A stretch of DNA of 64,000 bases from a virus: the IMG/VR virus record IMGVR_UViG_3300045391_005035; one strand, given 5' to 3'. Made by a program: the position numbers and the translations under genes. The notes below the pieces were generated by a model. The model made no database searches, was not told the origin of the DNA, and saw nothing but the letters and a program-made list of their open reading frames with translations. The stretch's first letter is position 1. Every line of letters begins with the position of its first letter. Of this stretch, positions 9,799 through 55,346 are shown piece by piece.

Positions 9799-10107
9799 TC
9801 AGATCACGACGAGCGTGGAGCCGAGCCCGGCCGCCGGCACGAGTCGCCCTCGAAGCATCATGCGCCGATCGGCGCGCACGGCGAGGCCTGCGCCAGGGTT
9901 CACGAACCCGCCGAGTCCGTCGTCCGGGCAGCCGAGCGGAAAGGGGAGCGGTGCGTAGTTGCCGATCGCGCGACCGCCTCGCGCGTTGTACGCGACCGTC
10001 TCGTTCGGAATGATGGTCCTGAGCTGACGCGCCCAGACGCTGTGCGCATTCGCGAAGCGACGCATCGGCTGCGTGCCGGGGAGGACCTTGGCGACGTGGT
10101 AGCTCAT
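9799..10107 (-). CDS. Small putative virion protein (MSY start, GLG motifs)
   Basis: MSYH...IIPN...DGLGG...AGLGS. Confidence 0.6.
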   Translation of the reverse strand: MSYHVAKVLPGTQPMRRFANAHSVWARQLRTIIPNETVAYNARGGRAIGNYAPLPFPLGCPDDGLGGFVNPGAGLAVRADRRMMLRGRLVPAAGLGSTLVVI

Positions 10108-10982
10108 GAACGAATCCTACCCTTCTTCCGGCTGGTTCGCCGCTTCTTGCGGCTCGTTCGCTTGTTCGGGGCGACACGGCGATGCTTCATCGACGCGCTC
10201 CGTTGCGACGTAGACAGCGACGTGCGCTTCGATGGCGTTGCGGCAATCCAGTTGTCGTCGAGCGGCACGATGGTCGTGGACATGTCCTCGTGCAGCGCCG
10301 GAAAATAGAGCGAGTCGATCTCCGCCACGTGACCCACCAGCGCGGGAATCAGCTGGCCCCACCGATCGCGAGCATCGACGAGACGCACGTACACCATCTG
10401 GTAGATCGTGTACCCGTGCGTTTTATCGAAATCCGTCGTCACGTGATCGACAACACCACGTGCCCCCGCCGGAATGGTGCCGGCCAACGATTCGACCGCC
10501 GCCGAGAACTTCACGCGCGTGCCTGGCGCGTAGGTGTGCTGCACCCAGTTTCCATACGCCGCCGACGCCAGCGTCGTACCTGACAGCAGCGGTGCCGGTG
10601 GCACCGGGTTCGGCGTCGTGTGTCGTCCTTTCCACGAACGCTTGAGCGGAACCGTCTGCGGACCCCAGTTGTCGACCAGCGGGCGGAGCGTTGTGTGGGC
10701 GACCTCGTAGTCGACGTCCGCCCACCACTTCTCCTGGTGAGCGCCGAACAGAAGCGGTGTCGCAACTGTCGTTTCGAGCCCGAGGTCACGAGAGCTTCGA
10801 TACAGGCGTCGGACGCGAGCGACGGTGCCAGCCGGCAGGATCATCTCTTCCAGATCGTCACCGACCTTCGTGAAGAACGCGACCGGCTTCAGTAGGCGGA
10901 CCGGCGTATCGACAGCGTAGGTCTTCTCGACCCAGTCGTCCCACGGCGGAATGTAGTGGCCAACCGGCGGCGGCGGGATCAC
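10104..10982 (-). CDS. Two-domain SH3/DUF4314-like protein with basic KRTS tail
   Basis: Two copies of W...TYA.GT.V..PAG..G.V...PL.DNW, separated by TTPN; VAPN-KRTSRKK tail. Confidence 0.65.
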   Translation of the reverse strand: MIPPPPVGHYIPPWDDWVEKTYAVDTPVRLLKPVAFFTKVGDDLEEMILPAGTVARVRRLYRSSRDLGLETTVATPLLFGAHQEKWWADVDYEVAHTTLRPLVDNWGPQTVPLKRSWKGRHTTPNPVPPAPLLSGTTLASAAYGNWVQHTYAPGTRVKFSAAVESLAGTIPAGARGVVDHVTTDFDKTHGYTIYQMVYVRLVDARDRWGQLIPALVGHVAEIDSLYFPALHEDMSTTIVPLDDNWIAATPSKRTSLSTSQRSASMKHRRVAPNKRTSRKKRRTSRKKGRIRS

Positions 10983-12028
10983 AGGAGCCTCCTACGCTTC
11001 AGTTCGTCGTAGATCTCCTGCTGCTCTTCCGGAGACCACTGATCGTCATCGATGTGGATCGACCTTCGCGTCGACGATCCGGTAGCGTAGTCCTCGTTCG
11101 CATCCGACTGCGTATACCATCGGGCCGGACCAGGATAGTCGCTGCCTTCGACGTGGCCGAGTTCTTCCGCGATGATCTTGGCCGCTCGCTGCGCGAACGA
11201 CTCACCCTCGTCTAGGTCGGCTGCGTCGATCTCGATGTCACTCAGCGACTCGTGATCGATCTCCGGGTACACGTCCGGCTCGCTCGCGTGCACCGTCTCG
11301 CTCGTAAACCCGAGCCGACGCGAGCCACCGAGCTGCGCGGCCGCCTCTGGCGCCACTCCACCGCCCACCGTGCCGCCGATGTAGTAGCGACAATCGCGGT
11401 TCGCGCAGTCGCGGTTCCAGATGCCTTCGAAGTAGTCGTGCGAGCCGCAGGACGGACACGTTGCGTTCGGTGCGAGCCTGCGATGCTTCATCGACGACGG
11501 CCGCGTCTGATGCGGAGCCCAGTTGTCATCGAGCGGGACGAGCCACGTCAGAATGTGAGAACCAATCGGCCGCGTCAGCAGGTTCGTGTTCTTGGCGTCG
11601 AGGAGCTTCCACATGTCCTCGATGTCGGCCGCTACCCAGCTCTGGGCTTCTCCAGGAGCCGCATCGGCGACGTACGAATACGAGCGCGCATCAACAACGC
11701 GCACAGTGATCTGCAATGGGTAGTTATACGCATCGTTGCGCGTAACAGCGACCACCGTACCGCGCGTACCGTCGGGAACGAGCGCGGCCACGGTCGACGT
11801 CCGCAGGTCGTGTGGACCACCTGGGTACCACCCCACTCCGCCGCCCCAGAACTTCACTGGCGTCCCAGGGGCGAACGTGCGGCGCGACCACTTCTCCAGG
11901 TCGTCGACGCCGTGGGTAAGGGCCTGCGGCGGCGGAGGGATTGGGTTCTGATGAACGCGCCGGCTCGTTCGCTTCGTCGGATTCTTCGACGTGCGCTTCG
12001 GACGCCGTGATGTACGCCGCTTCGTCAC
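10979..12028 (-). CDS. Multidomain putative cargo protein (basic leader, SH3-like domain, Zn ribbon, acidic domain)
   Basis: KRTS leader-VHQN; third copy of the DNW domain; LAPN-CPSC..CANRDC. Confidence 0.65.
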   Translation of the reverse strand: MTKRRTSRRPKRTSKNPTKRTSRRVHQNPIPPPPQALTHGVDDLEKWSRRTFAPGTPVKFWGGGVGWYPGGPHDLRTSTVAALVPDGTRGTVVAVTRNDAYNYPLQITVRVVDARSYSYVADAAPGEAQSWVAADIEDMWKLLDAKNTNLLTRPIGSHILTWLVPLDDNWAPHQTRPSSMKHRRLAPNATCPSCGSHDYFEGIWNRDCANRDCRYYIGGTVGGGVAPEAAAQLGGSRRLGFTSETVHASEPDVYPEIDHESLSDIEIDAADLDEGESFAQRAAKIIAEELGHVEGSDYPGPARWYTQSDANEDYATGSSTRRSIHIDDDQWSPEEQQEIYDELKRRRLL

Positions 12029-12621
12029 CAGTCCTCGTCGCCGCGGTCCCGCTCGGACCACTCCATGTAGCGTTCGTCCTCGTTCCAGTGCTCGTAGGGG
12101 CGCATCATGCGCGCTCCCAGCTCGCCCAGCAGCTCTTCGACGACCTGCATGCGCAGCCCGGTGTCATCGCCGTGCTTCTTGTCGTTCTGGTAGAACTCGT
12201 CCGTGAACTTCTGATGCTGTTCGAGCACCTCGGAGGGCCACTGTCGCTGCGGCTTGTTCAGGACGTTCTCGTCGAACGGCGCGCCTTGGCCGATCTGTTC
12301 CTGAACCCACAGGCCGAGCTTCTCGTCGGCGTAGTCGGCCGCGCGATCGGCCATCGCGTCGGCTTCTGCCTCGCGGTCCTCGTCTGACCTGAACGAACGC
12401 TCTTCGAGCTTCGAGTTCAGGTCGTTCCATTCGCTCGCGAGCTTGTCGATCATCTCGCGACGAATCTTCGCCCTCAGGTCGTTCTCGTCCTCGGGCTCGC
12501 GATCGTCGCTGTACGACCAGCCGCGCGTCGGGGCTCGGTAGTTGCTCCGCAGTGATGCTCCCGGGGAACGCTTGCTCGTTCGGCGCTTGCTCGACTTCTT
12601 CTTGCTCGTTCGCTTCGTCAT
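12025..12621 (-). CDS. Basic-leader acidic protein (putative cargo)
   Basis: MTKRTSKKKSSKRRTSKR...LRSN followed by an acidic helical body. Confidence 0.65.
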   Translation of the reverse strand: MTKRTSKKKSSKRRTSKRSPGASLRSNYRAPTRGWSYSDDREPEDENDLRAKIRREMIDKLASEWNDLNSKLEERSFRSDEDREAEADAMADRAADYADEKLGLWVQEQIGQGAPFDENVLNKPQRQWPSEVLEQHQKFTDEFYQNDKKHGDDTGLRMQVVEELLGELGARMMRPYEHWNEDERYMEWSERDRGDEDW

Positions 12622-12624
12622 TGG

Positions 12625-12861
12625 TCAGCGTCTCCTTTTCGACGAGCGCTTGCGCGATGTTTTCAGCAGGCGGTACGCGCGCACGATGAGACTGCCAGCG
12701 GTGCGAGCCTTCCGCGAATCCACCGGACTGGCCACGCTAGCCGCGGCGTACAGTTCGTCCCACGCCTTCACGAGATGAAGACTGGCCGCGTTGATGTGCT
12801 CCTGGGTGTCGCGAGAGACGGTACGCGGCCCAGCGGCCTTTCGACTCGTTCGCTTCGTCAT
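12625..12861 (-). CDS. Small basic protein
   Basis: MTKRTSRK...KTSRKRSSKRRR. Confidence 0.6.
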   Translation of the reverse strand: MTKRTSRKAAGPRTVSRDTQEHINAASLHLVKAWDELYAAASVASPVDSRKARTAGSLIVRAYRLLKTSRKRSSKRRR

Positions 12862-13790
12862 GCGGCCGCTCCTTCGTTCGCCGGCAGACCTGCGCGGCGT
12901 AGCGCGTCCTCGACACGGTACACGATGCGTCCGTGCGCACCGTATCGCCGCGCAACCACCGGCCACTCGCCGTCCCAGTCGATGAGCGTCGACTCGCCAG
13001 ATCGCTTGCCGCTCTCGGCGCCGTCGACCATCGCCGAGCAGATGTCGGCCTTCCGATCGAGCGCTGAACCGTGCGACACATAGAGACCGGGCGGGAGGTG
13101 TCCGAGCGCCCGCCGGGCACCTCCGGGCAGTCGCTGTGGCAGCTCCTGCTCGCGCGCGATTTTCACCGCAGCCATGACGCGCTTGCCCGTGGCTTCCGAT
13201 GTCTCCACCGTGCCGCTCTCGATGTCCTCGACCGCTTCCTCTGCGTCGTCGGGCTCCGGCTCCACTGCCGGCGTCTTCGCCTCGAAGCGACTGCCGAAGC
13301 CGGCTGGCGGCATCGCCGCGTACGTTCGGATGGGCGCCGTCGCGATAGGCGCCGGCGCAATCCTACGGCGCAGGCTGCCCTCGATAATGCGGCTCGTCTC
13401 GCGCACACGGTTCTCCGCGGCGAGCATGCGGTGCTCCAGCTCACGTACTTCCGTCGCGAGCCAGACAGCTCGCGGATCCGCGCACATGCTCAGGTACTCT
13501 GGCGCGTCGATCATCGCCTCGCTGACGAGCACGTCGGCGACCGCCCGGCGAAGCTCGGCAGTGAGCGGAAGCGTGTCGATGTCGACTCCGGCCGCCGTCG
13601 CGAGCGCGGTGAGCGCCTCGGGCAGCGGCACCTCCGAGAGCGTGACCGCGAAGAAAACGCCTTCGTCGTACCCGAACAGACGATCGAAGAAACGGAGCTT
13701 GCGACCCACGTACCGCAGGGTGATTGCTCCGGTACTCCTGTCCTGGCTCTGCCTGATGTCGACGCGCGAGAGGTAGGTGAGGCGGCTCAT
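12858..13790 (-). CDS. Hypothetical protein
   Basis: GGAGG RBS before MSRLTY; coupled to the next gene. Confidence 0.65.
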   Translation of the reverse strand: MSRLTYLSRVDIRQSQDRSTGAITLRYVGRKLRFFDRLFGYDEGVFFAVTLSEVPLPEALTALATAAGVDIDTLPLTAELRRAVADVLVSEAMIDAPEYLSMCADPRAVWLATEVRELEHRMLAAENRVRETSRIIEGSLRRRIAPAPIATAPIRTYAAMPPAGFGSRFEAKTPAVEPEPDDAEEAVEDIESGTVETSEATGKRVMAAVKIAREQELPQRLPGGARRALGHLPPGLYVSHGSALDRKADICSAMVDGAESGKRSGESTLIDWDGEWPVVARRYGAHGRIVYRVEDALRRAGLPANEGAAA

Positions 13791-13940
13791 GAGCGGGACC
13801 TCCAGAAGAACAGAACCTGAAGCGAGGACAGTATGTCTGCTCTCAGACTTGTGGGGCACGCCTGGACCAGGTCGAACTCCTTGATGGAGCCGCCGGATCG
13901 GACACACCGTCCCCGCTTCAGACTCTGTTCTACCACTACC

Positions 13941-16672: not shown

Positions 16673-17389
16673 TCAGCTCCCACCCGCACTGAAGATGTTG
16701 CGAGCGTAGATGCCTCCGGCCCAGCCGCGATCGCGTGGCGAGCCCATCGTCTCCGTCACCGGGATGAACGCCCTCTTGCGGATCGCAGGCAGAGCCATGT
16801 CGATCGGCTCGACGGTCGAGATCGCCTCGACCGCAGAGAGAGCATCGTCCGCGTCGTCGACGCCGAGCATGCCCTTGTACGGCGCACCCGCGTGGCTCAC
16901 GTCGACCATCAGACCACCACCGAGCGACGAGCGCTGGTAGTACCCGCTCAGCACGTTCGCCGGCGGGGGCGTCGCAGCCGATGCGTTCGCCGCATCGACC
17001 GGGAGCATCGAGGAAGGAATCAGGGGCAGCAGTCCGGCGACGCCGGCGCCAGCGGCGACGGTCATCTGCGTCTCGGGGGAGAGCCCGAGCGAGTCACCGA
17101 ACATGTACGCGCCGTACGCGGCTGCCGACGAGGCGACGGCCGCGATCAGCCGGCGGTCCTGCCCAGGCAGGATCATCGGGCCGACCTTCGAGCCGAGCCA
17201 CTGCGTGAGCAGCACGCCGCCCGTCGCGCCGAGCGCCGGGAACACGATCTTCTCCATCACGTCGATGCCGCCGAGCGTCGCGTTGCGCGCGAGACGACGC
17301 AGGGCACCACGAGCGTTCGTGAGCAGCACGTACCGGTTGCGACGTACCTTGCGGCGGCCGCTCCTGCTCGTGCGCTTCTTCTTGCTCAT
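16673..17389 (-). CDS. Basic-N-terminus 3-TM virion membrane protein, paralogue of the 17436-19742 C-terminal half
   Basis: VRRNRYVLLTN vs MKRNRYVLMRN; EPIDMA...GGIYARNIF vs QPIDMA...GGIFARSIF. Confidence 0.7.
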   Translation of the reverse strand: MSKKKRTSRSGRRKVRRNRYVLLTNARGALRRLARNATLGGIDVMEKIVFPALGATGGVLLTQWLGSKVGPMILPGQDRRLIAAVASSAAAYGAYMFGDSLGLSPETQMTVAAGAGVAGLLPLIPSSMLPVDAANASAATPPPANVLSGYYQRSSLGGGLMVDVSHAGAPYKGMLGVDDADDALSAVEAISTVEPIDMALPAIRKRAFIPVTETMGSPRDRGWAGGIYARNIFSAGGS

Positions 17390-17435: not shown

Positions 17436-19742
17436 TCAGGTCAGCGAGCCGCCGAAGATCGAGCGGGCGAAGATGCCGCCCTCGCCGGTGCGACCCTCGG
17501 ACGTCACCATGGACGTCTTGATGGGCAGCGTGCGGTGCATGACGCTGGTGACCTCGCGCGCCATGTCGATCGGCTGCTCGATCGACACGAACGGCGGCTG
17601 CTGGAGGCCGCCGGGGCCGACCGGCGGCGTGAGCGTCGGGACCGCGATCGGCGAACCGACCACGCCCGGCGTCCCCGCGTCACCCATGCCGGCCGCCGCG
17701 TACATCGTGCCCATGCCGGCCGCCGCCTCGTAGGCGCCGACGCCCGCGGCCGCTTCCATGGTGTCCATCAGGCCGTCGACCGACGCCTGATCGCCCATGC
17801 CGGCCGCCGCGTACATCGTCGGCGATCCGAGGCCGCCGAGCGGCTGGTCGACGTACTCGCCCATCGGCTGATCGACGTACTCGCCCATCGAGGGGTCCTG
17901 CACGTACGCGCCGAGCGGCTGATCGACGTACTCGCCGAAGCCCGCGCCCCAGCGACCGAGGTACGGCGCCGCCTGCGTGCCACGCAGGAGCCGCACGGCG
18001 ACCGCGCAGCCCATGCCCGCGACGATCGGCGTGAGGTTCTGGCGGAGCATCGCCGGCAGCTTGCCGCCGAACGCGATCGCGAGACCCGCGACGCCAGCGC
18101 CGACGAGCGACTTCGTGACGATCGGGTCCGCGCGACCCGCGTCGAGCATGTTCGTGATCGCCGGGACGCCAGCGGCGAGGTTCGCCGCTGCGTTCGCGGC
18201 CATCAGGCCGCCCACGGCGTACGCACCCGGGATCGCGACCTGGTTGATCGGATCGACGCCGAAGATCGTCATGTTGCGCATCAGCACGTAGCGGTTCCGC
18301 TTCATGCCCTTCGAGTGACGACGACGACGGCCGTTGCGGCTGACGTGCTTCTTGCTGTGGCGCTTCCGACTGTTCCGACGCATCGAGGACCTCCCGTTCG
18401 CGCTCACGCGCTTCTTGCTGTACCGCTTCTTGCTGTACCCGGACCGCATCGCGCGGGCGTGGGCATCCGACGCCGCTCCACCGAAGTGGAACTTGCGCAC
18501 GTAGGCGCGCTCGCTCACGTGCCCCGGCACGTAGACGGCGTAGCCCTTGCGCTTGCTGCGCGGGCCGAACTCGACGAGCTGCACGCGCTGCCCGGTCGGG
18601 AGCCCACGACGCTGGCTGACGCGGCCGAGCATGTTCGCCGCCATGCGGATGCCCGCCGCCCGACGCTTCGGGTGCTTGCTCGTGATGTGGATGTACGGCG
18701 GGTTGAAGAGCCGACCGGTGCGGAACGGCGACGCCGCGAAGCCCTTGACGCGCTTGTAGCCGCCACGTGCCTTCGACGTCAGGTGGAAGCGTCCGTGCTT
18801 GCGGCTGAGACGACCACGCTGCTGCGCCTTGCGGCTCGCCCTCGCAGCGACCGCCGCAGCGGACTCGGCAGCCTTCGCGGCGCGACGCGCCTTCGCGGCG
18901 GCCTTGTTCGCCGCCTTCTTGGACGACTTCTTCGCCTTCTTCGCCTTGCTCGTGGCCTTCGAGGCGGCCTTCTTCGCCTTGCTCGCATGCTTGCGTGCGC
19001 TCGCGGCGGCCTTGCTCGCGACCTTCTTCGACGTCGCCTTCTTCGCCTTCGACGCGGCCTTCTTCGCAGCGCTCGCCTGCTTGCTCGCGCTCTTCGCAGC
19101 CTTCGACGCGGCCTTCGCCGTCACGCGGCCGCCGGTCACGGTCGCCGCCGACTTGCTCTTCTTGTGCGACCGCTTCGAGGCCGACGCGAGAGCGCTCGAC
19201 ACGCGCTTGCGCTGCGCGCTCGTCATCGACGCGAACGCTGCCTGCGGACCCGTCGCCTTGCGTCCGCCCTTCGAGCGCCGCCGACCGCTTCCGACGTCGA
19301 TGCCGCGAGCCGCGGCCTTCACGGCCTCGCGATCTGCGGTCGACATGTTGCGACGCATCGCACGCTTGAGCGCCTTGAGGTTGTACGCCATCGAGCTTCT
19401 CCCTGTGTTCCGAAGGACCTGCTTGCGGCTCATGGGACGAGCCATGACCGTTCCCCACTCGTCGACCGCGACGAGGCGAGCACCGTTCGAGTCCGCGTGC
19501 TTCTCGGCCCAGCCGCGGGCACCGCGCACCGTTCGATACGCAGGACTGAGACGCTGATTGCGACCACGCGTCGCGCCGCGGATCCACTGAAATGGATTGC
19601 GCACAGGCGGGCGACCAGGGTTGATCACCGTCATGTGCGTAACGCCGCCCACGTTCGGCTCCATGCCGGGGCTGCGCTCGTACTTCCGAGCGACGGACTT
19701 CGTGCTCTTGCGGTAGACCAAGGCCATCTGGACGCAACTCAC
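17436..19742 (-). CDS. Large core/membrane protein: H1-like and protamine-like DNA-binding regions, 3 TM, GEYVDQP and AAAGMG repeats
   Basis: AKKAASKAKK tract; RHSK tracts; three hydrophobic helices; C-terminal repeats. Start may be ATG 19727. Confidence 0.75.
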   Translation of the reverse strand: MSCVQMALVYRKSTKSVARKYERSPGMEPNVGGVTHMTVINPGRPPVRNPFQWIRGATRGRNQRLSPAYRTVRGARGWAEKHADSNGARLVAVDEWGTVMARPMSRKQVLRNTGRSSMAYNLKALKRAMRRNMSTADREAVKAAARGIDVGSGRRRSKGGRKATGPQAAFASMTSAQRKRVSSALASASKRSHKKSKSAATVTGGRVTAKAASKAAKSASKQASAAKKAASKAKKATSKKVASKAAASARKHASKAKKAASKATSKAKKAKKSSKKAANKAAAKARRAAKAAESAAAVAARASRKAQQRGRLSRKHGRFHLTSKARGGYKRVKGFAASPFRTGRLFNPPYIHITSKHPKRRAAGIRMAANMLGRVSQRRGLPTGQRVQLVEFGPRSKRKGYAVYVPGHVSERAYVRKFHFGGAASDAHARAMRSGYSKKRYSKKRVSANGRSSMRRNSRKRHSKKHVSRNGRRRRHSKGMKRNRYVLMRNMTIFGVDPINQVAIPGAYAVGGLMAANAAANLAAGVPAITNMLDAGRADPIVTKSLVGAGVAGLAIAFGGKLPAMLRQNLTPIVAGMGCAVAVRLLRGTQAAPYLGRWGAGFGEYVDQPLGAYVQDPSMGEYVDQPMGEYVDQPLGGLGSPTMYAAAGMGDQASVDGLMDTMEAAAGVGAYEAAAGMGTMYAAAGMGDAGTPGVVGSPIAVPTLTPPVGPGGLQQPPFVSIEQPIDMAREVTSVMHRTLPIKTSMVTSEGRTGEGGIFARSIFGGSLT

Positions 19743-21473: not shown

Positions 21474-22079
21474 TTATTTGTTCGCTCGACGCGCGCCGAG
21501 CCAATCCCTCGCAGAGAACGGTCGCCCTTCGTTCCCACTGTTGCGTCGCATCCGGCTCGGATGCGTCTCCAAGCCGTGGCGACGCAGCAGTGCTTCGACG
21601 TTGCGAACCTGGCGCGGCGCGCCGAGGTCATTGCTGACGTAGACGGGCGGCACGTTCTTGTCCGGCGACCTGAAGACCAGGTGGCCGGAGCGAGTGTGCT
21701 CGATCTCCCAGCCAGCTTCGCGCGCCATGTCTTCGATGCGTCGGATGTCGCTGCCGCCGCGCCCACGACTGACGCGCTTGCCGCCGTTCGCGCGCAACGG
21801 GTTCTTCTTCGCTGCCCACCATTCGTGGTCGAGCTTGGCGGTCGCGTCTTCGAGCGCCTCGATCTTCGCGTCGAACACGAGCTTCTCGCGGTCCCAGTCG
21901 TCCCACCGCTCCGCCTTCATCAGCTCGTACATTCGATCGCGTCGCTGCTCCTGAAGCCTCGCGATCTTCTCGTTGATGGGATCGGCTTCCTTGCGGATCT
22001 GCGCTCGCGTCCGGCCTGCGTTCGGGCGAACCTGACGACTCGTGCGACTTGCGATCTTGCGTGATGTTCGTCGCGCCAC
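21474..22079 (-). CDS. Putative cargo polyprotein: coiled coil plus HicA-like domain between xxN motifs
   Basis: VRPN / LRAN / MRRN delimit domains; DIRRIEDMAREAGWEIEHTRSGHLVFRSP is HicA-like. Confidence 0.65.
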   Translation of the reverse strand: MARRTSRKIASRTSRQVRPNAGRTRAQIRKEADPINEKIARLQEQRRDRMYELMKAERWDDWDREKLVFDAKIEALEDATAKLDHEWWAAKKNPLRANGGKRVSRGRGGSDIRRIEDMAREAGWEIEHTRSGHLVFRSPDKNVPPVYVSNDLGAPRQVRNVEALLRRHGLETHPSRMRRNSGNEGRPFSARDWLGARRANK

Positions 22080-22081
22080 GA

Positions 22082-23269
22082 CTACCTCTTCGAGGACTTG
22101 ACCTGTACCGCAACCGGTACGCCGACGAGCGTCTTGGCGTACTCCTCGACACGGAAGTAGCTCCGACCTTGGTCGTCGATACCGCGCACGATGACCGGGA
22201 ACTTCGGGTCGAAGTTGTCGACGATCCAGTGGTACTCGCCCACCTTCGAGGCCCCGATCCTCGTCGACGTCATCGCGCCCTTCAGCGACGCGTTCTTGAA
22301 CTGGACGATCGCCTCGCCCTTCTTCGGCCCGTAGCCGTACTTGTAGAGCCCTGGAGGCAGGCGCTTGAACTTCGCCGCTACACCGGGCGGCAGCATGTCC
22401 GCCATCGTTGTCGGATGACCCTCTTGACGAACGAGCGCGATCGAGTTCCAGACGTCCATCTCGCTCAGCTTGTTGGTCGAGAGATGACGCCCGTTTCGAC
22501 GAATCGGCTCCGAGTGCCACGGCGTGATGTGCGCCTGCCTCAGAGCTGCACCGAGGCTGCGGATCTCGCTACGCTGCGATGGCGTCGCGAAGTCGGCGAG
22601 CGCCTCGATGTGTGCGAACGCGTCCTGTGCGCGCCACGAGTCGCCAGCGCGGAGAGACGACCATGCCTGGGTCAGCTCGCGCTCCAGCTCGTGCTCCAAC
22701 ATGTCGAGCCGTTCTCCGCCACGGTTCGACTGGAGACGAACACGATCACGCGGTTCGAGCGACAGGTGCGAGTGGCCTCGGCCGTCGATGACGTAGGCGC
22801 TTCTCATCGACGGATCGCCGAGCCACCGAGCCATCGCCGTCTCGCGCATCGCGCCGACTGGACCTGCCCCGAACGCATGACGGTGCCCAGCGCTGTCCAC
22901 GCCGATCGCGCGGTACAGCGGAGGCGGGTTGCGTGAAATGCGGCGACCGTTCTTCCTCGGCGGCAAGCCCTTCAACTCGCGCCAGATCGGCTCGTACTTC
23001 TTCGTCGGCGAGATGATCACGGCGAACGATGCTTCGCCGGCGCGGCTGCGCGATGGCACTTCGCGGACCTTCGCGGTGAAGGTGTCTCGGTACGCCGTTC
23101 GGAGCATCGTGGCCTGCTTCTCGGCCTGCTCGCGCGTCTTGAACCGTGATTCCTCGTGCTCCAGCACTTCGCGCGGCGCGGAGCGCTTCGAGCGGAACAT
23201 CCCGAAAGCGTTGCGCGAGACGCGGCGAGCGTTGCGGCTGGTCCTGCGACGTGACGTGCGCTTCACCAT
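22082..23269 (-). CDS. Putative cargo polyprotein with four small domains
   Basis: Linkers VSRN, ISRN, LQSN, IRRN/LSTN separate compact domains. Confidence 0.7.
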   Translation of the reverse strand: MVKRTSRRRTSRNARRVSRNAFGMFRSKRSAPREVLEHEESRFKTREQAEKQATMLRTAYRDTFTAKVREVPSRSRAGEASFAVIISPTKKYEPIWRELKGLPPRKNGRRISRNPPPLYRAIGVDSAGHRHAFGAGPVGAMRETAMARWLGDPSMRSAYVIDGRGHSHLSLEPRDRVRLQSNRGGERLDMLEHELERELTQAWSSLRAGDSWRAQDAFAHIEALADFATPSQRSEIRSLGAALRQAHITPWHSEPIRRNGRHLSTNKLSEMDVWNSIALVRQEGHPTTMADMLPPGVAAKFKRLPPGLYKYGYGPKKGEAIVQFKNASLKGAMTSTRIGASKVGEYHWIVDNFDPKFPVIVRGIDDQGRSYFRVEEYAKTLVGVPVAVQVKSSKR

Positions 23270-23748: not shown

Positions 23749-24225
23749 TCACGCAGCCGAGCGGTAACGCGACTTGCGCGAACGCTTGTTGCGGCGGACG
23801 TGGCGACGATTCGCCTTCACCGGACCCTTCACGTTCCAGCTCATGTAGGCGATGCCGCCGAGCACCGCGACGCCCACGCCGATCATCACCGGCCAGTACC
23901 AGTCCGGACTCGCGGAGACCGGCGGTGCGGTGGCGGTAGCCGGATCGATGGCCGGAGTCGTCGTGGCCGGAGTCGTCGTGGTCTGCTGACCCGTCGCTGC
24001 GCCGACGATGCTGCTGATGAGCGAGCCACCTGTCGTGAGCGCTGTCGACCAATCGGACGCGGTGTGATCCGCCGTCGTCGTCGTTGTCTTGGTCTGCCCG
24101 AGCCCGAAGAGCCCGTTCGCTCGGTACGGACCCTTGCCCCATCCGAAGAGGCCATGCGCCTCGTAGGGGTTGCCGAGTCCAGCTGCCGCGAAGATTCCGC
24201 GGTTGACGCGATTCGTGTAGCTCAT
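23749..24225 (-). CDS. Virion membrane protein (MSY leader, GLG, Thr-rich stalk, TM, basic tail)
   Basis: MSYT..GIFAAAGLG..LFGLGQ..TM..VKANRRHVRRN. Confidence 0.7.
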   Translation of the reverse strand: MSYTNRVNRGIFAAAGLGNPYEAHGLFGWGKGPYRANGLFGLGQTKTTTTTADHTASDWSTALTTGGSLISSIVGAATGQQTTTTPATTTPAIDPATATAPPVSASPDWYWPVMIGVGVAVLGGIAYMSWNVKGPVKANRRHVRRNKRSRKSRYRSAA

Positions 24226-24551
24226 CACTTCCTCTTCTTTCGGCTCTTCAGCCACCACATGACACCGGCTCCGACGAGCCCCACGCCGACCACGCCCGCG
24301 ACCCCGACACCGACCACCGCGGTCTCCGTCTGCCCGAGGCCGTAAGGTGCAACGCACCCGCGGTACCGCAAACAGGGGAGCACGAGCGACGGCGGCTGGC
24401 TCCAGCACTCGGAGCACGGGCTGTAGGCGACGTAGTCGATGAAGCCGGGGCCATACCATCCGCCACGCCAGCCACGACGCACCCAGCCGTGGCCGCCGCG
24501 ACGAAAGCCGCCGCGGTGGCCCGCGCCATGATGACCCCCGCCGCCACTCAC
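24225..24551 (-). CDS. Small Gly/Arg-rich virion membrane protein
   Basis: RGGW tract, PYGLGQ, TM, KSRKKRK. Confidence 0.65.
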   Translation of the reverse strand: MSGGGGHHGAGHRGGFRRGGHGWVRRGWRGGWYGPGFIDYVAYSPCSECWSQPPSLVLPCLRYRGCVAPYGLGQTETAVVGVGVAGVVGVGLVGAGVMWWLKSRKKRK

Positions 24552-28722: not shown

Positions 28723-29130
28723 TCAGCGGCTGTGGCGCCGACGCGAGTGGCGGCGGTTCTTGCTCACGCGACGACGGCTGCGACGACGACCGTTCTTGCT
28801 CACGCGACGACGGCTGCGACGACGACCGTTCTTGCTCACGCGCTTCTTCGAGTGGCGCTTGCCCTTCGACGTGCGCTTCTTCGAGTGGCGCTTGCGCGAC
28901 GTGCGCTTCTTCGACACGCGACCCACCGAGAACATCTTGCTGCCACGCTTGATGCTCACGTGCTTGCTGCCGCGCTTGATGAGACCACGCGCCTTGCGAC
29001 GCGCTGCACCGAGCTTCGACGAGCGCGCGACCACGCGGTGCGTCTTGCCGCTCAGGATCGCGAACAGCTTGCTGTCGAGCTTGCTGCGCGAGTGCTTCTT
29101 CCGGCTCTTCCGCTTCGTTCCCATGATCAC
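28723..29130 (-). CDS. Protamine-like DNA-condensing protein
   Basis: Extremely R/K/S-rich; 3x RVSKN. Confidence 0.75.
   Translation of the reverse strand: MIMGTKRKSRKKHSRSKLDSKLFAILSGKTHRVVARSSKLGAARRKARGLIKRGSKHVSIKRGSKMFSVGRVSKKRTSRKRHSKKRTSKGKRHSKKRVSKNGRRRSRRRVSKNGRRRSRRRVSKNRRHSRRRHSR
28756..28842. repeat. Coding 36-bp tandem repeat (about 2.4 copies) encoding RVSKNGRRRSRR
   Basis: GTTCTTGCTCACGCG recurs at 28756, 28792 and 28828. Confidence 0.85.
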
Positions 29131-32349: not shown

Positions 32350-32907
32350 CTACACGGGGAAAAAGGTGTACTGCTGGACGCGAGAGAGCATGTTTGCGGT
32401 CTTGCGGCCCGCGACCGGGTCGAGTGCCCACCACAGGCCGGTGCTCGGGTCCTGCGCCTCGACGAACACATGCGTGTGGATCTTCGGCTCGCCGAACCGG
32501 CGCGGCTTGAAACCGACCGTCACGAACCGGATGGGAGCGCCGATCACGAGGCAGCAGGTGCCGATCCCGAGCGCGAACTCGTCGCAGTCGCAGACGAGCC
32601 GACCCTGCGTCGCGTCCTGGACCATGCGCTCCGGGTCCTTGATCAGCTCCACATGCACCGGGTCGCGCGTGTACCGCCCGTTGTTCCCCCACCACTTCGA
32701 GATGGCGACGCACTCCGACAGGTACGCCTTGGGCCGGATGTTCGCGATGATCTGCTCGGTGTGCCGCCGGACGAAGATCGACCGCTCGCCTCGCTCGCCG
32801 CGAGCCAGCTCGATCATTTTACGGACGGTGTGATCCGTTCCCCGGTACGGCTCCACAGAGCCGATCGCGTTGTTGTACGCGGGGGAGTATGCAGACGCTC
32901 GAAGCAT
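32350..32907 (-). CDS. Transglutaminase-like (papain-fold) Cys-His-Asp enzyme, candidate maturation protease
   Basis: YTRDP...CDCDE...HTHVF...WWALDP. Confidence 0.8.
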   Translation of the reverse strand: MLRASAYSPAYNNAIGSVEPYRGTDHTVRKMIELARGERGERSIFVRRHTEQIIANIRPKAYLSECVAISKWWGNNGRYTRDPVHVELIKDPERMVQDATQGRLVCDCDEFALGIGTCCLVIGAPIRFVTVGFKPRRFGEPKIHTHVFVEAQDPSTGLWWALDPVAGRKTANMLSRVQQYTFFPV

Positions 32908-54391: not shown

Positions 54392-54610
54392 GTGGGCGGC
54401 AAAGCGCGGGCACCGTCGAAGGACGTGCGCGAGCTGATTCGCACCGTCGAGCGCGAAGGCTGCGAGGTCGAGCGCCTCGGCTCCGGCCACTTCCGCATTA
54501 GCCGGCCGGGCCACCCGGACACGGTCACTCTGAGCGGCACCGCGACGTCCAGCGGCGTCCAGTACGACACGCGAAAGAAGATCCGCATCCTTCTCGGGGT
54601 AACCGTGTAG
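54392..54610 (+). CDS. HicA-like (dsRBD-fold) toxin protein
   Basis: KDVRELIRTVEREGCEVERLGSGHFRISRP; no adjacent HicB recognised. Confidence 0.65.
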   Translation: MGGKARAPSKDVRELIRTVEREGCEVERLGSGHFRISRPGHPDTVTLSGTATSSGVQYDTRKKIRILLGVTV

Positions 54611-54612
54611 CT

Positions 54613-54873
54613 ATGGCGACCAAGAAGCGACAGACGAGCATCAATCACTGGGGCTACGAGGTCATCCAGGTCGGCAAAGGCGGCGCGGCGGCTGGCAACC
54701 ACCGTCGCGGCATCACCGGCATCCGCTTCGGCAACAAGAAGGCGGCGCTCGTCGCGGCGGCCAAGGCGTGCGGCGAGTGCGAGACGTGGCGCGTGGTCGA
54801 GATCCCACCCGGCGAGCCACTGGACTACGATGGCCACGTCGTCGGAGAAGTGACGATCGAAAGGCTCATGTGA
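54613..54873 (+). CDS. Hypothetical protein
   Basis: In-operon ORF. Confidence 0.55.
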   Translation: MATKKRQTSINHWGYEVIQVGKGGAAAGNHRRGITGIRFGNKKAALVAAAKACGECETWRVVEIPPGEPLDYDGHVVGEVTIERLM

Positions 54874-55346
54874 TCTTCCAACCGACCGCAGACATCTCGC
54901 CGATCACCGAGCACATCTCCATCGGCGGGATCAGCAGCTACGGCCACCCGAGCCGACTCGTCGCGTTCAAGCTCGTGCTGAACGTCGCGTGGGAGCTGAC
55001 CGACTGGGGTGGCGACGACGGCGGTCCGCTGGAGGACTCGACGCTCCCGAACGGCGTCGTCGTCCGCAACGGGCGCCTCGACGATACCGACGACATCGAG
55101 GATGTTCGCAAGCAAGAGGCCGAAATCTTCCGCGTCGTCGGCCTCGTGAACCAAGCTCGCGCTCGCGGCGACAACGTCCTCGTGACGTGCGCCGCGGGAC
55201 GAAACAGATCTGCGCTGGTGATCGCCGAGCACCTCATCCAGGTGGGCGGCCACCCGCACGCGACGGTCAAGCTCATCCAAGCGGCGCGATCCCGAGCGCT
55301 CAGCAACGACGCCTTCGTCGCCTGGCTCAAACGGCGGCGGTCGTGA
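54870..55346 (+). CDS. Dual-specificity/tyrosine phosphatase
   Basis: VLVTCAAGRNRSA (Cx5R) P-loop; upstream LDD acid loop. Confidence 0.9.
   Translation: MIFQPTADISPITEHISIGGISSYGHPSRLVAFKLVLNVAWELTDWGGDDGGPLEDSTLPNGVVVRNGRLDDTDDIEDVRKQEAEIFRVVGLVNQARARGDNVLVTCAAGRNRSALVIAEHLIQVGGHPHATVKLIQAARSRALSNDAFVAWLKRRRS

Follow-up and report, generated by a model that had tools for sequence, protein, structure and literature searches.

Shuffled small domains, one of them HicA-like, joined by basic hydrophobic-x-x-Asn linkers in two coupled genes of an uncultivated virus

The DNA analysed herein is a window of 64,000 nucleotides (nt) from the 176-kb contig of IMG/VR record IMGVR_UViG_3300045391_005035, and its subject is two neighbouring minus-strand genes, P0001 and P0002, both built of small domains strung between basic linkers which end in a hydrophobic-x-x-Asn motif (xxN). 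Our reading covers these 64 kb together with 20-kb pieces of relatives. The modules of P0002 are named A, B, C and D, that of the upstream gene P0003 is named E, and P0001 holds a helical hairpin and a HicA-like module (Table 1). The ATG of P0002 overlaps the stop codon of P0003 as ATGGTGA, and the GTG start of P0001 lies 2 nt past the P0002 stop and 5 nt past a GAAGAGG site; moreover, the GC content at third codon positions is 0.79 in P0001 and 0.83 in P0002, a bias like that of real genes. The two open reading frames (ORFs) are confirmed as real, tightly coupled as an operon and conserved. Some 20 membrane proteins, as well as protamine-like proteins, are encoded with them in one co-oriented block of the minus strand which, judging from gene order and membrane-protein content, is probably a late structural block.

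Table 1. Positions of the two genes, their modules and further features in the window (coordinates in L003 refer to a relative contig).
Feature	Position	Strand	Description
Gene P0001, 201 amino acids	21474..22079	-	basic leader, helical hairpin, HicA-like module, short basic tail
P0001 leader, residues 1-20	22020..22079	-	RRTSR...VRPN; pLDDT <50
P0001 helical hairpin, residues 21-98	21786..22019	-	ends LRAN; helices 25-55 and 59-92, pLDDT 95+
HicA-like folded core, residues 109-167	21579..21755	-	alpha-beta-beta-beta-alpha, pLDDT 84-88
MRRN180 junction and basic C-terminal tail, residues 177-201	21477..21551	-	pLDDT <50
Gene P0002, 395 amino acids	22082..23269	-	leader, then modules A, B, C, D
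P0002 leader, residues 1-20	23210..23269	-	KRTSRRRTSRN...VSRN; pLDDT <50
Module A, residues 21-107, and linker 108-114 (ISRN)	22928..23209	-	homologues in P0083, P0088
Module B, residues 115-182	22724..22927	-	ends LQSN; beta-beta-alpha-beta-beta-alpha, pLDDT 94-97
Module C, residues 183-259, and linker (IRRN, LSTN) to 266	22472..22723	-	three-helix bundle, pLDDT 90+
Module D, residues 267-395	22085..22471	-	C-terminal domain conserved family-wide, pLDDT 90-98
Upstream gene P0003	23263..23745	-	leader RRTSR...PVRN and module E; part of the same shuffling unit
Transglutaminase-core-like Cys-His-Asp protein, 185-198 amino acids	32350..32907	-	only protease-like fold seen in the late block; conserved in L003 at 56-652
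Free-standing HicA-like gene, early arm	54392..54610	+	GSGH; no leader, no xxN

The motifs are VRPN20, LRAN98 and MRRN180 in P0001, and VSRN20, ISRN114, LQSN182, IRRN259 and LSTN266 in P0002, whose modules A, B and C are otherwise free of Asn; the ORF reading and the motif listing agree with the original prediction in both the ORFs and the motif positions. The linkers, all but one predicted to be disordered, are rich in Arg and Lys and often carry (K/R)RTS(R/K) before the terminal xxN, and the same basic stretch serves as an N-terminal leader where a module opens an ORF. Leaders of 18-29 amino acids are seen on P0001, P0002, P0003 and the genes at 16673, 10979 and 12025, four of the six with a strict hydrophobic-x-x-N. 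When [VLIM]xxN in basic context was counted against 500 shuffles, the late-block proteins gave 30 occurrences vs 6.3 +/- 2.4 in the shuffles (13 at most), and the early replication arm gave 4 vs 5.0 expected. Moreover, a hydrophobic residue at P4, with Asn as P1, is a preference unique to Asn among the twenty residues (60% vs 7-20%), and in orthologue pairs the junction Asn is conserved in 19 of 23 cases vs 109 of 211 for the other linker residues. The residue following Asn is mostly Gly, Arg, Ala or Lys. Module B ends in hydrophobic-x-x-N in all 19 of 19 relatives (18 Leu, 1 Ile), irrespective of the next module, and [VLIM]xxN lies at most 30 residues upstream of domain D in 44 of 60 relatives, vs a background of 0.32.

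The stretch [KR]RTS[KR] occurs 16 times in the late proteins and never in the early ones, and the codons of KRTSR vary, which indicates selection at the protein level and rules out homogenisation of these stretches as DNA repeats. The leader is absent from the early-arm HicA-like gene and from the 43 free-standing relatives described below. Two further explanations of the Asn sites were rejected: 2A-like ribosome skipping, a eukaryotic mechanism with an NPGP signature, since most sites here read N-G, N-A or N-R, and N-glycosylation sequons, since there is no N-x-S/T pattern. The (K/R)RTS(R/K) stretch also has the form of a basophilic-kinase-type consensus, so that control of the basic tags by phosphorylation is conceivable.

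Structure models were made with AlphaFold2 on alignments of relatives, except for module A, whose homologues were misaligned and dropped from the alignment, and which was modelled without them. In P0001 the predicted local distance difference test score (pLDDT) falls below 50 at residues 1-20, 96-108 and 173-189, which are its three xxN regions, and reaches 95+ over the hairpin at 25-92. In P0002 it falls below 50 at 1-30, 70-113 and 254-266, and confident folds are found for B (119-182), C (185-245) and D (270-381). The models support small modules (60-130 amino acids) that are mutually unrelated and fold independently, as had been foreseen; the reservations are that module A is only partly confident, namely in its first helix, and that the junction LQSN182 is not disordered. 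Foldseek queries were the whole multi-domain models rather than single modules, and gave no E-value below 0.001. With P0001 as the query of the PDB fold search only generic hairpin matches came up, as the hairpin swamped the result and the HicA-like core was hardly probed; likewise module D has no Pfam match, and no fold match in whole-model searches in which module C swamped the result and D and B were hardly probed.

The HicA-like module merits a closer look, as the original prediction had named it a HicA-like RNase. The AlphaFold2 topology is helix 109-121, strands 125-128, 134-137 and 146-148, and helix 155-167, which is the fold of about 60 residues resembling a double-stranded RNA-binding domain (dsRBD); the RQVRN160 in it lies inside helix 2 and is thus a part of the domain and not a linker. 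Against the Pfam family HicA_toxin (PF07927), whole P0001 scores 14.4 bits with an E-value of 0.04 and the excised module scores 17.5-17.7 bits, below the gathering cut-off of 27 bits; against PHROGs, whole P0001 matches phrog_2089 with an E-value of 7e-7. Among modules from different relatives, HicA_toxin is the top match for all six of six (best E-value 3e-4), and in the wider alignment it is the sole Pfam family matched, by 20 of 43 sequences (best E-value 2e-5). A profile of the six modules matches the HicA structures 4c26 and 6g26 over the full length with an E-value of 0.004, and the HicA-like profile finds 43 free-standing proteins of 63-131 amino acids, three of which are named YcfA/HicA-like by the Joint Genome Institute and one of which carries PF07927. 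In the 43-sequence alignment of modules and free-standing relatives, the only invariant column is His133 of P0001 (SGH, 21681-21683). The best PDB match of that 43-sequence profile is 1whz (E-value 0.003), a HicA-fold protein of Thermus, followed by HicA entries, and His133 aligns with the GGH of 1whz, so that the His of the G-(S/G)-H motif is in place. Foldseek of the two-domain P0001 model gave 6g26_E with a template-modelling (TM) score of 0.59 and a root-mean-square deviation of 3.0 over 53 columns, 5yrz_B with a TM score of 0.54 and 4p78_C with 0.51, at E-values of about 1, because the query was the whole two-domain model.

Of the HicA assignment, therefore, the fold, the invariant His and the sole Pfam family stand, and membership by the Pfam threshold does not. 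We read the P0001 module as a divergent domain of the HicA superfamily that keeps the catalytic His, and not as a member of the Pfam family. The free HicA-like ORF of the early arm, also foreseen, does exist and carries GSGH. No HicB-type Pfam match (E-value up to 0.1) was found in the neighbours of P0001 or of the gene at 54392, although a novel antitoxin may still lie beside either. Just after the latter gene, at 54768-55346 (+), a DSPc dual-specificity protein phosphatase is encoded (Pfam E-value 4.4e-11, above threshold).

As for relatives, the search of P0001 in 5.8 billion proteins returned a single close match, P0004, with 79% identity, on a contig of 3.1 kb (L001), and in P0004 an M-K-R-N is followed by a different acidic module of 119 amino acids. 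For P0002, 33 relatives were found by word index and 65 by exhaustive HMMER. The IMG/VR scan with the single P0002 as the query gave no match, and that with the alignment of domain D gave nine contigs, among them genomes listed as viral with lengths of 171 kb and 139 kb; no DNA or protein similar to the window was found among INPHARED phage records. Pfam on 81 family proteins gave one spurious match and nothing meaningful, and about 35 window ORFs searched against Pfam and PHROGs gave almost no matches in the late block. The matches of the 65 relatives fall in the query blocks 21-107, about 100-185, 181-254 and 257-393 of P0002, which are bounded by the junction Asn residues; the internal ends of BLAST alignments lie at a median of 9 amino acids from a basic-context Asn vs 26 for random positions.

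Between these relatives the modules are reordered. In the window the order is [leader-E] [leader-A-B-C-D] [leader-hairpin-HicA], and in L001 it is [leader-B-C-linker-E] [leader-D] [leader-hairpin-HicA-MKRN-acidic module]: at the DNA level the B-C block has changed sides relative to E, E is joined behind B-C by an internal RRTSR...VVRN linker, A is absent, and D forms an ORF by itself behind a leader of its own. The DNA junction formed by the stop of E and the next leader is kept in L001, there directly before D, which places the breakpoints inside the basic leaders. The HicA-like module stands after D in one ORF (P0010) and before D in another (L012 7659-8432), and it heads the next ORF in the window, L001 and L003, the last with a HicA-first ORF of 418 amino acids; for P0014 and P0015, inserted modules are the sole difference. 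Most family members have a basic leader, or an MSY...GLG leader with one membrane helix, at the start, D at the end, and one to six differing modules in between. Moreover, a NUDIX domain (Pfam E-value 2e-14, above threshold) is fused behind LRAN as the last module of a leader-bearing string in L012 8429-9640 and stands as an independent gene at that place in L003 (12830-13267) and L004 (3670-4101), with no NUDIX there in the window. Since order, fusion state and content differ with breakpoints inside the linkers, the linkers are recombination joints. Shuffling at the motifs had been set beforehand as a test, and it is seen in L001, P0010, L012, L003 and P0014/P0015, so that the claim of interchangeable modules, with shuffling, fusion and splitting at the basic xxN linkers, is supported.

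Homologues of module A stand behind membrane anchors in P0083, as two tandem copies, and in P0088; module B has 20 relatives, module C has 6 with xxN flanking both sides, and the family of domain D has 68 members. The tail of the protein at 12858-13907 (-), about 90 C-terminal residues with LPPGLYVSHG...WPVVARRYGAHGRIVYRVEDALRRAGL, resembles D with LPPGLYKYG...FPVIVRGIDDQGRSYFRVEEYAK, and looks like a divergent paralogue of it. Also, a membrane-anchored MSY protein carries an extra module LPKSxFVFPxRRAWPLD... behind its basic tail in L001 1-687, L012 6966-7655, P0028 and P0030, and its orthologue in the window, 23749-24459, stops right after the tail, which indicates that membrane proteins take part in the cassette exchange.

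With regard to the surroundings, many small membrane proteins are encoded upstream of the two genes, and downstream follow a small membrane protein, a conserved protein of 268 amino acids and a protamine-like protein of 768 amino acids with xxN-flanked Arg arrays. This late gene order is kept in L003, L004 and L012, and genes for an archaeo-eukaryotic primase and a helicase lie on the opposite arm. Pfam and PHROGs searches of the window ORFs recognised no member of a known virion family in the late block. The transglutaminase-core-like protein at 32350-32907 scores 20.5 bits against Pfam Transglut_core (E-value 6e-4, cut-off 23). The virus lineage is one of large (about 140-176 kb), high-GC uncultivated viruses. 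L004 (CAZXLQ010000293.1, 6.4 kb), found by the D-alignment scan of genome contigs, was deposited with an uncultured Clostridia metagenome-assembled genome and has, at a GC content of 62%, the viral late-gene order; mis-binning of a viral contig is the probable explanation, and the record gives no evidence of the host. A second cluster of KRTSR leaders and tails at 10104-12861 (-), with 10979-12028, 12025-12621, 12625-12861 and the C-terminus of 10104-10982, probably comprises further members of the same tag grammar, and L004 2383-3666 is a homologue of 10979-12028 directly after the D protein. Protamine-like Arg arrays in tandem, flanked by xxN, are found at 28723-29130 (-), 17436-19742 (-), L003 15281-18055 and L012 11241-13973; an example is three copies of RRVSKN|GRRRSRR, where cutting at Asn would give very basic peptides of about 10-35 amino acids, comparable to the very basic peptide mu of adenovirus.

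To bring these results together, the reading that we favour, to which we give roughly an even chance, is that P0001 and P0002 are beads-on-a-string late proteins which are cut at xxN by a viral protease and delivered with the DNA. Hydrophobic-x-x-Asn would be the P4-P1 site of a virus-encoded maturation protease, which, after the strings have been loaded beside the genome, would split them into single modules and short basic peptides; together with the DNA, the modules would then pass into the host, where the HicA-like RNase and the NUDIX enzyme (the latter in relatives) may attack host RNA, and this attack at entry is our speculation. A protease site is suggested by the fact that the same pairs of modules occur fused or split with the linker kept as the leader, and such a coexistence is expected if processing makes the end products identical. 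On this basis one may go a step further, tentatively and with somewhat less confidence than in cleavage and delivery as such, to a lineage of prokaryotic viruses with an Asn-directed maturation protease and a plug-and-play cargo, in which the linkers also act as joints for recombination: whatever small domain came to stand between two of them would automatically be loaded, released and delivered, and precursors would be cut into the HicA-like RNase, NUDIX, many folds of unknown function and protamine-like peptides.

Several observations weigh against cleavage and delivery. Cleavage at Asn, location in the virion, delivery and the effector roles proposed for the modules, in host shut-off or anti-defence, are inferred, and to call modules A-D effector-like is a guess; apart from the HicA-like and NUDIX modules, Pfam recognises no module function among the 81 proteins. 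The HicA match is below the Pfam gathering score and its Foldseek E-value is about 1. No protease of known Asn specificity was found among the window ORFs, and the one protease-fold candidate is the sub-threshold transglutaminase-core protein, which may act in the processing. In many relatives an RRSS stretch after the last Asn would remain on D, so that the basic stretch cannot be regarded simply as a tag for removal. The B-C junction LQSN182 stands at a helix end in a confident part of the model, where the hydrophobic-x-x-N could belong to the structure of B itself. Finally, the genes read are limited to 64 of 176 kb and to the 20-kb pieces of the relatives.

The strongest competing explanation, one that we find unlikely and yet take seriously, is that the proteins are never cleaved and are genome-associated core or nucleoid proteins, whose basic linkers and tails bind the packaged DNA, with D and the membrane anchors tying the DNA to the particle, xxN being a docking or helix-capping motif, and the modules serving as spacers or binding nucleic acids, in the HicA-like case in the manner of a dsRBD. 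The Arg/Lys-rich linkers beside protamine-like proteins would fit such a role, as would the basic tails after the membrane helices of neighbouring proteins, which show the usual charge pattern of a cytoplasmic or inner side, and the same can be said of the RRSS after the last Asn, the structured LQSN junction and the dsRBD-like HicA fold. However, a mere tether needs neither an Asn that is better conserved than its linker surroundings nor an Asn-specific preference at P4; the coexisting fused and split pairs with the retained leader are most simply explained by the same end products, and the invariant His argues for catalysis.

It is less probable still, indeed rather improbable, that these are late intracellular proteins outside the particle, such as assembly factors, scaffolds or agents of host control, with generic disordered linkers and with the HicA-like module acting in the producing cell. 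That the block holds no recognised structural gene of a known family is in agreement with this, but the grammar is common to the membrane-anchored and the protamine-like proteins of the block and absent from the replication arm, the members are often fused to membrane anchors with the shared MSY...GLG leader, and an unneutralised HicA-like RNase made late has no obvious use in the producing cell. Protease-free self-cleavage at Asn, by the succinimide chemistry of the asparagine lyases known from the capsid proteins of nodaviruses, tetraviruses and reovirus (mu1) or by slow Asn-Gly or Asn-Pro scission, is very improbable: Asn invariably stands at P1, it is often followed by Gly, Ala or Pro at P1', and the window ORFs offer no Asn-specific protease, but known Asn lyases need a folded environment and seven of the eight sites lie in predicted disordered linkers between unrelated modules, the hydrophobic P4 preference points to recognition in trans, and P1' is also commonly Arg or Lys.

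Should the linkers be sites of processing, as in the favoured reading, they would represent a maturation specificity with Asn at P1 previously undescribed in a prokaryotic virus (no phage maturation protease is known to have hydrophobic-x-x-Asn specificity), and a rare polyprotein-style expression of particle-internal proteins in a prokaryotic DNA virus; a toxin-fold RNase would then be carried without an antitoxin, kept inactive within the precursor until maturation or entry sets it free. Even if nothing is cut, closely related viral genomes differ by domain shuffling at definite peptide joints, dozens of small folds with no known function are delineated by the family and travel as cassettes, and the leader/linker grammar provides a sequence rule for finding more cargo genes in an almost unannotated group of viruses.

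Among known systems, a precedent is offered by the polyvalent proteins of phages and conjugative elements, for which packaging, delivery together with DNA and proteolytic processing are predicted (Iyer, Burroughs, Anand, de Souza and Aravind 2017; PMC5512222). Like them, the proteins described here combine several unrelated domains in one polypeptide, with architectures shuffled between relatives (PMC5512222). Polyvalent proteins are encoded beside late or virion genes; the genes here lie in a block of membrane and protamine-like proteins, opposite the helicase-primase arm, in which no known virion family was recognised. However, polyvalent proteins are large, with recognisable enzyme domains and their own zincin-like peptidase, whereas the modules here are tiny and mostly of unknown fold, and no in-chain peptidase appears in Pfam searches of the 81 family proteins. 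HicA is not among the polyvalent-protein domains (0 mentions in PMC5512222). Moreover, every joint here is the same basic hydrophobic-x-x-Asn linker and many members are membrane-anchored, unlike in polyvalent proteins.

The MuF-anchored polymorphic toxins of temperate phages are reported to combine a conserved virion-associated domain with exchangeable toxin modules and to be encoded in late regions (Jamet et al. 2017; PMC5576092). They have one variable toxin at the C-terminus, behind a MuF domain, whereas here the conserved D is C-terminal with several variable modules before it, and MuF was not detected.

The internal proteins of T4 and its Alt protein carry a capsid-targeting sequence and are cut by the gp21 protease, so that cargo is loaded, trimmed and ejected into the host. 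A tag of this type is seen here in form only, as a short leader ending in a consensus. The prohead proteases of giant phages, with a fixed P1 and a Val-preferring P4, remove propeptides of 20 amino acids from head proteins (PMC10052503) and so offer a precedent for the proposed processing, and the propeptides of the ejection proteins of phiKZ, 201phi2-1 and SPN3US are likewise short N-terminal tags ending in the protease consensus (PMC10052503, PMC5694885). In T4 and the giant phages, however, P1 is Glu, the tags are not poly-basic and each single protein has one propeptide, whereas here P1 is Asn and the modules form strings; no gene for a gp21-type prohead protease, a portal or an HK97-type capsid was recognised by Pfam or PHROGs in the about 35 window ORFs.

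HicA toxins (PF07927; 1whz, 4c26, 6g26, 4p78, 5yrz) arrest growth through mRNA cleavage that does not depend on the ribosome. The HicA-like module resembles them in its length of about 60 amino acids, the alpha-beta-beta-beta-alpha order, a G-x-H whose His is invariant, and G-L at the end of the C-terminal helix; unlike them, it is embedded between xxN linkers, has no detected HicB and forms a distinct subfamily with an STPSDxR...N...LRRAGL tail. A likeness to the proposed linker cutting is found in the core-protein precursors of large eukaryotic DNA viruses, where pp220 and pp62 of African swine fever virus are cut at Gly-Gly-X and pVII and pX (mu) of adenovirus by adenain: in both, a viral cysteine protease acts at a short consensus with a hydrophobic P4 and releases small, very basic DNA-binding peptides. 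Their consensus is Gly-based and their proteases belong to other clans, and module shuffling and bacterial-type toxin modules set the proteins of this virus apart from those precursors.

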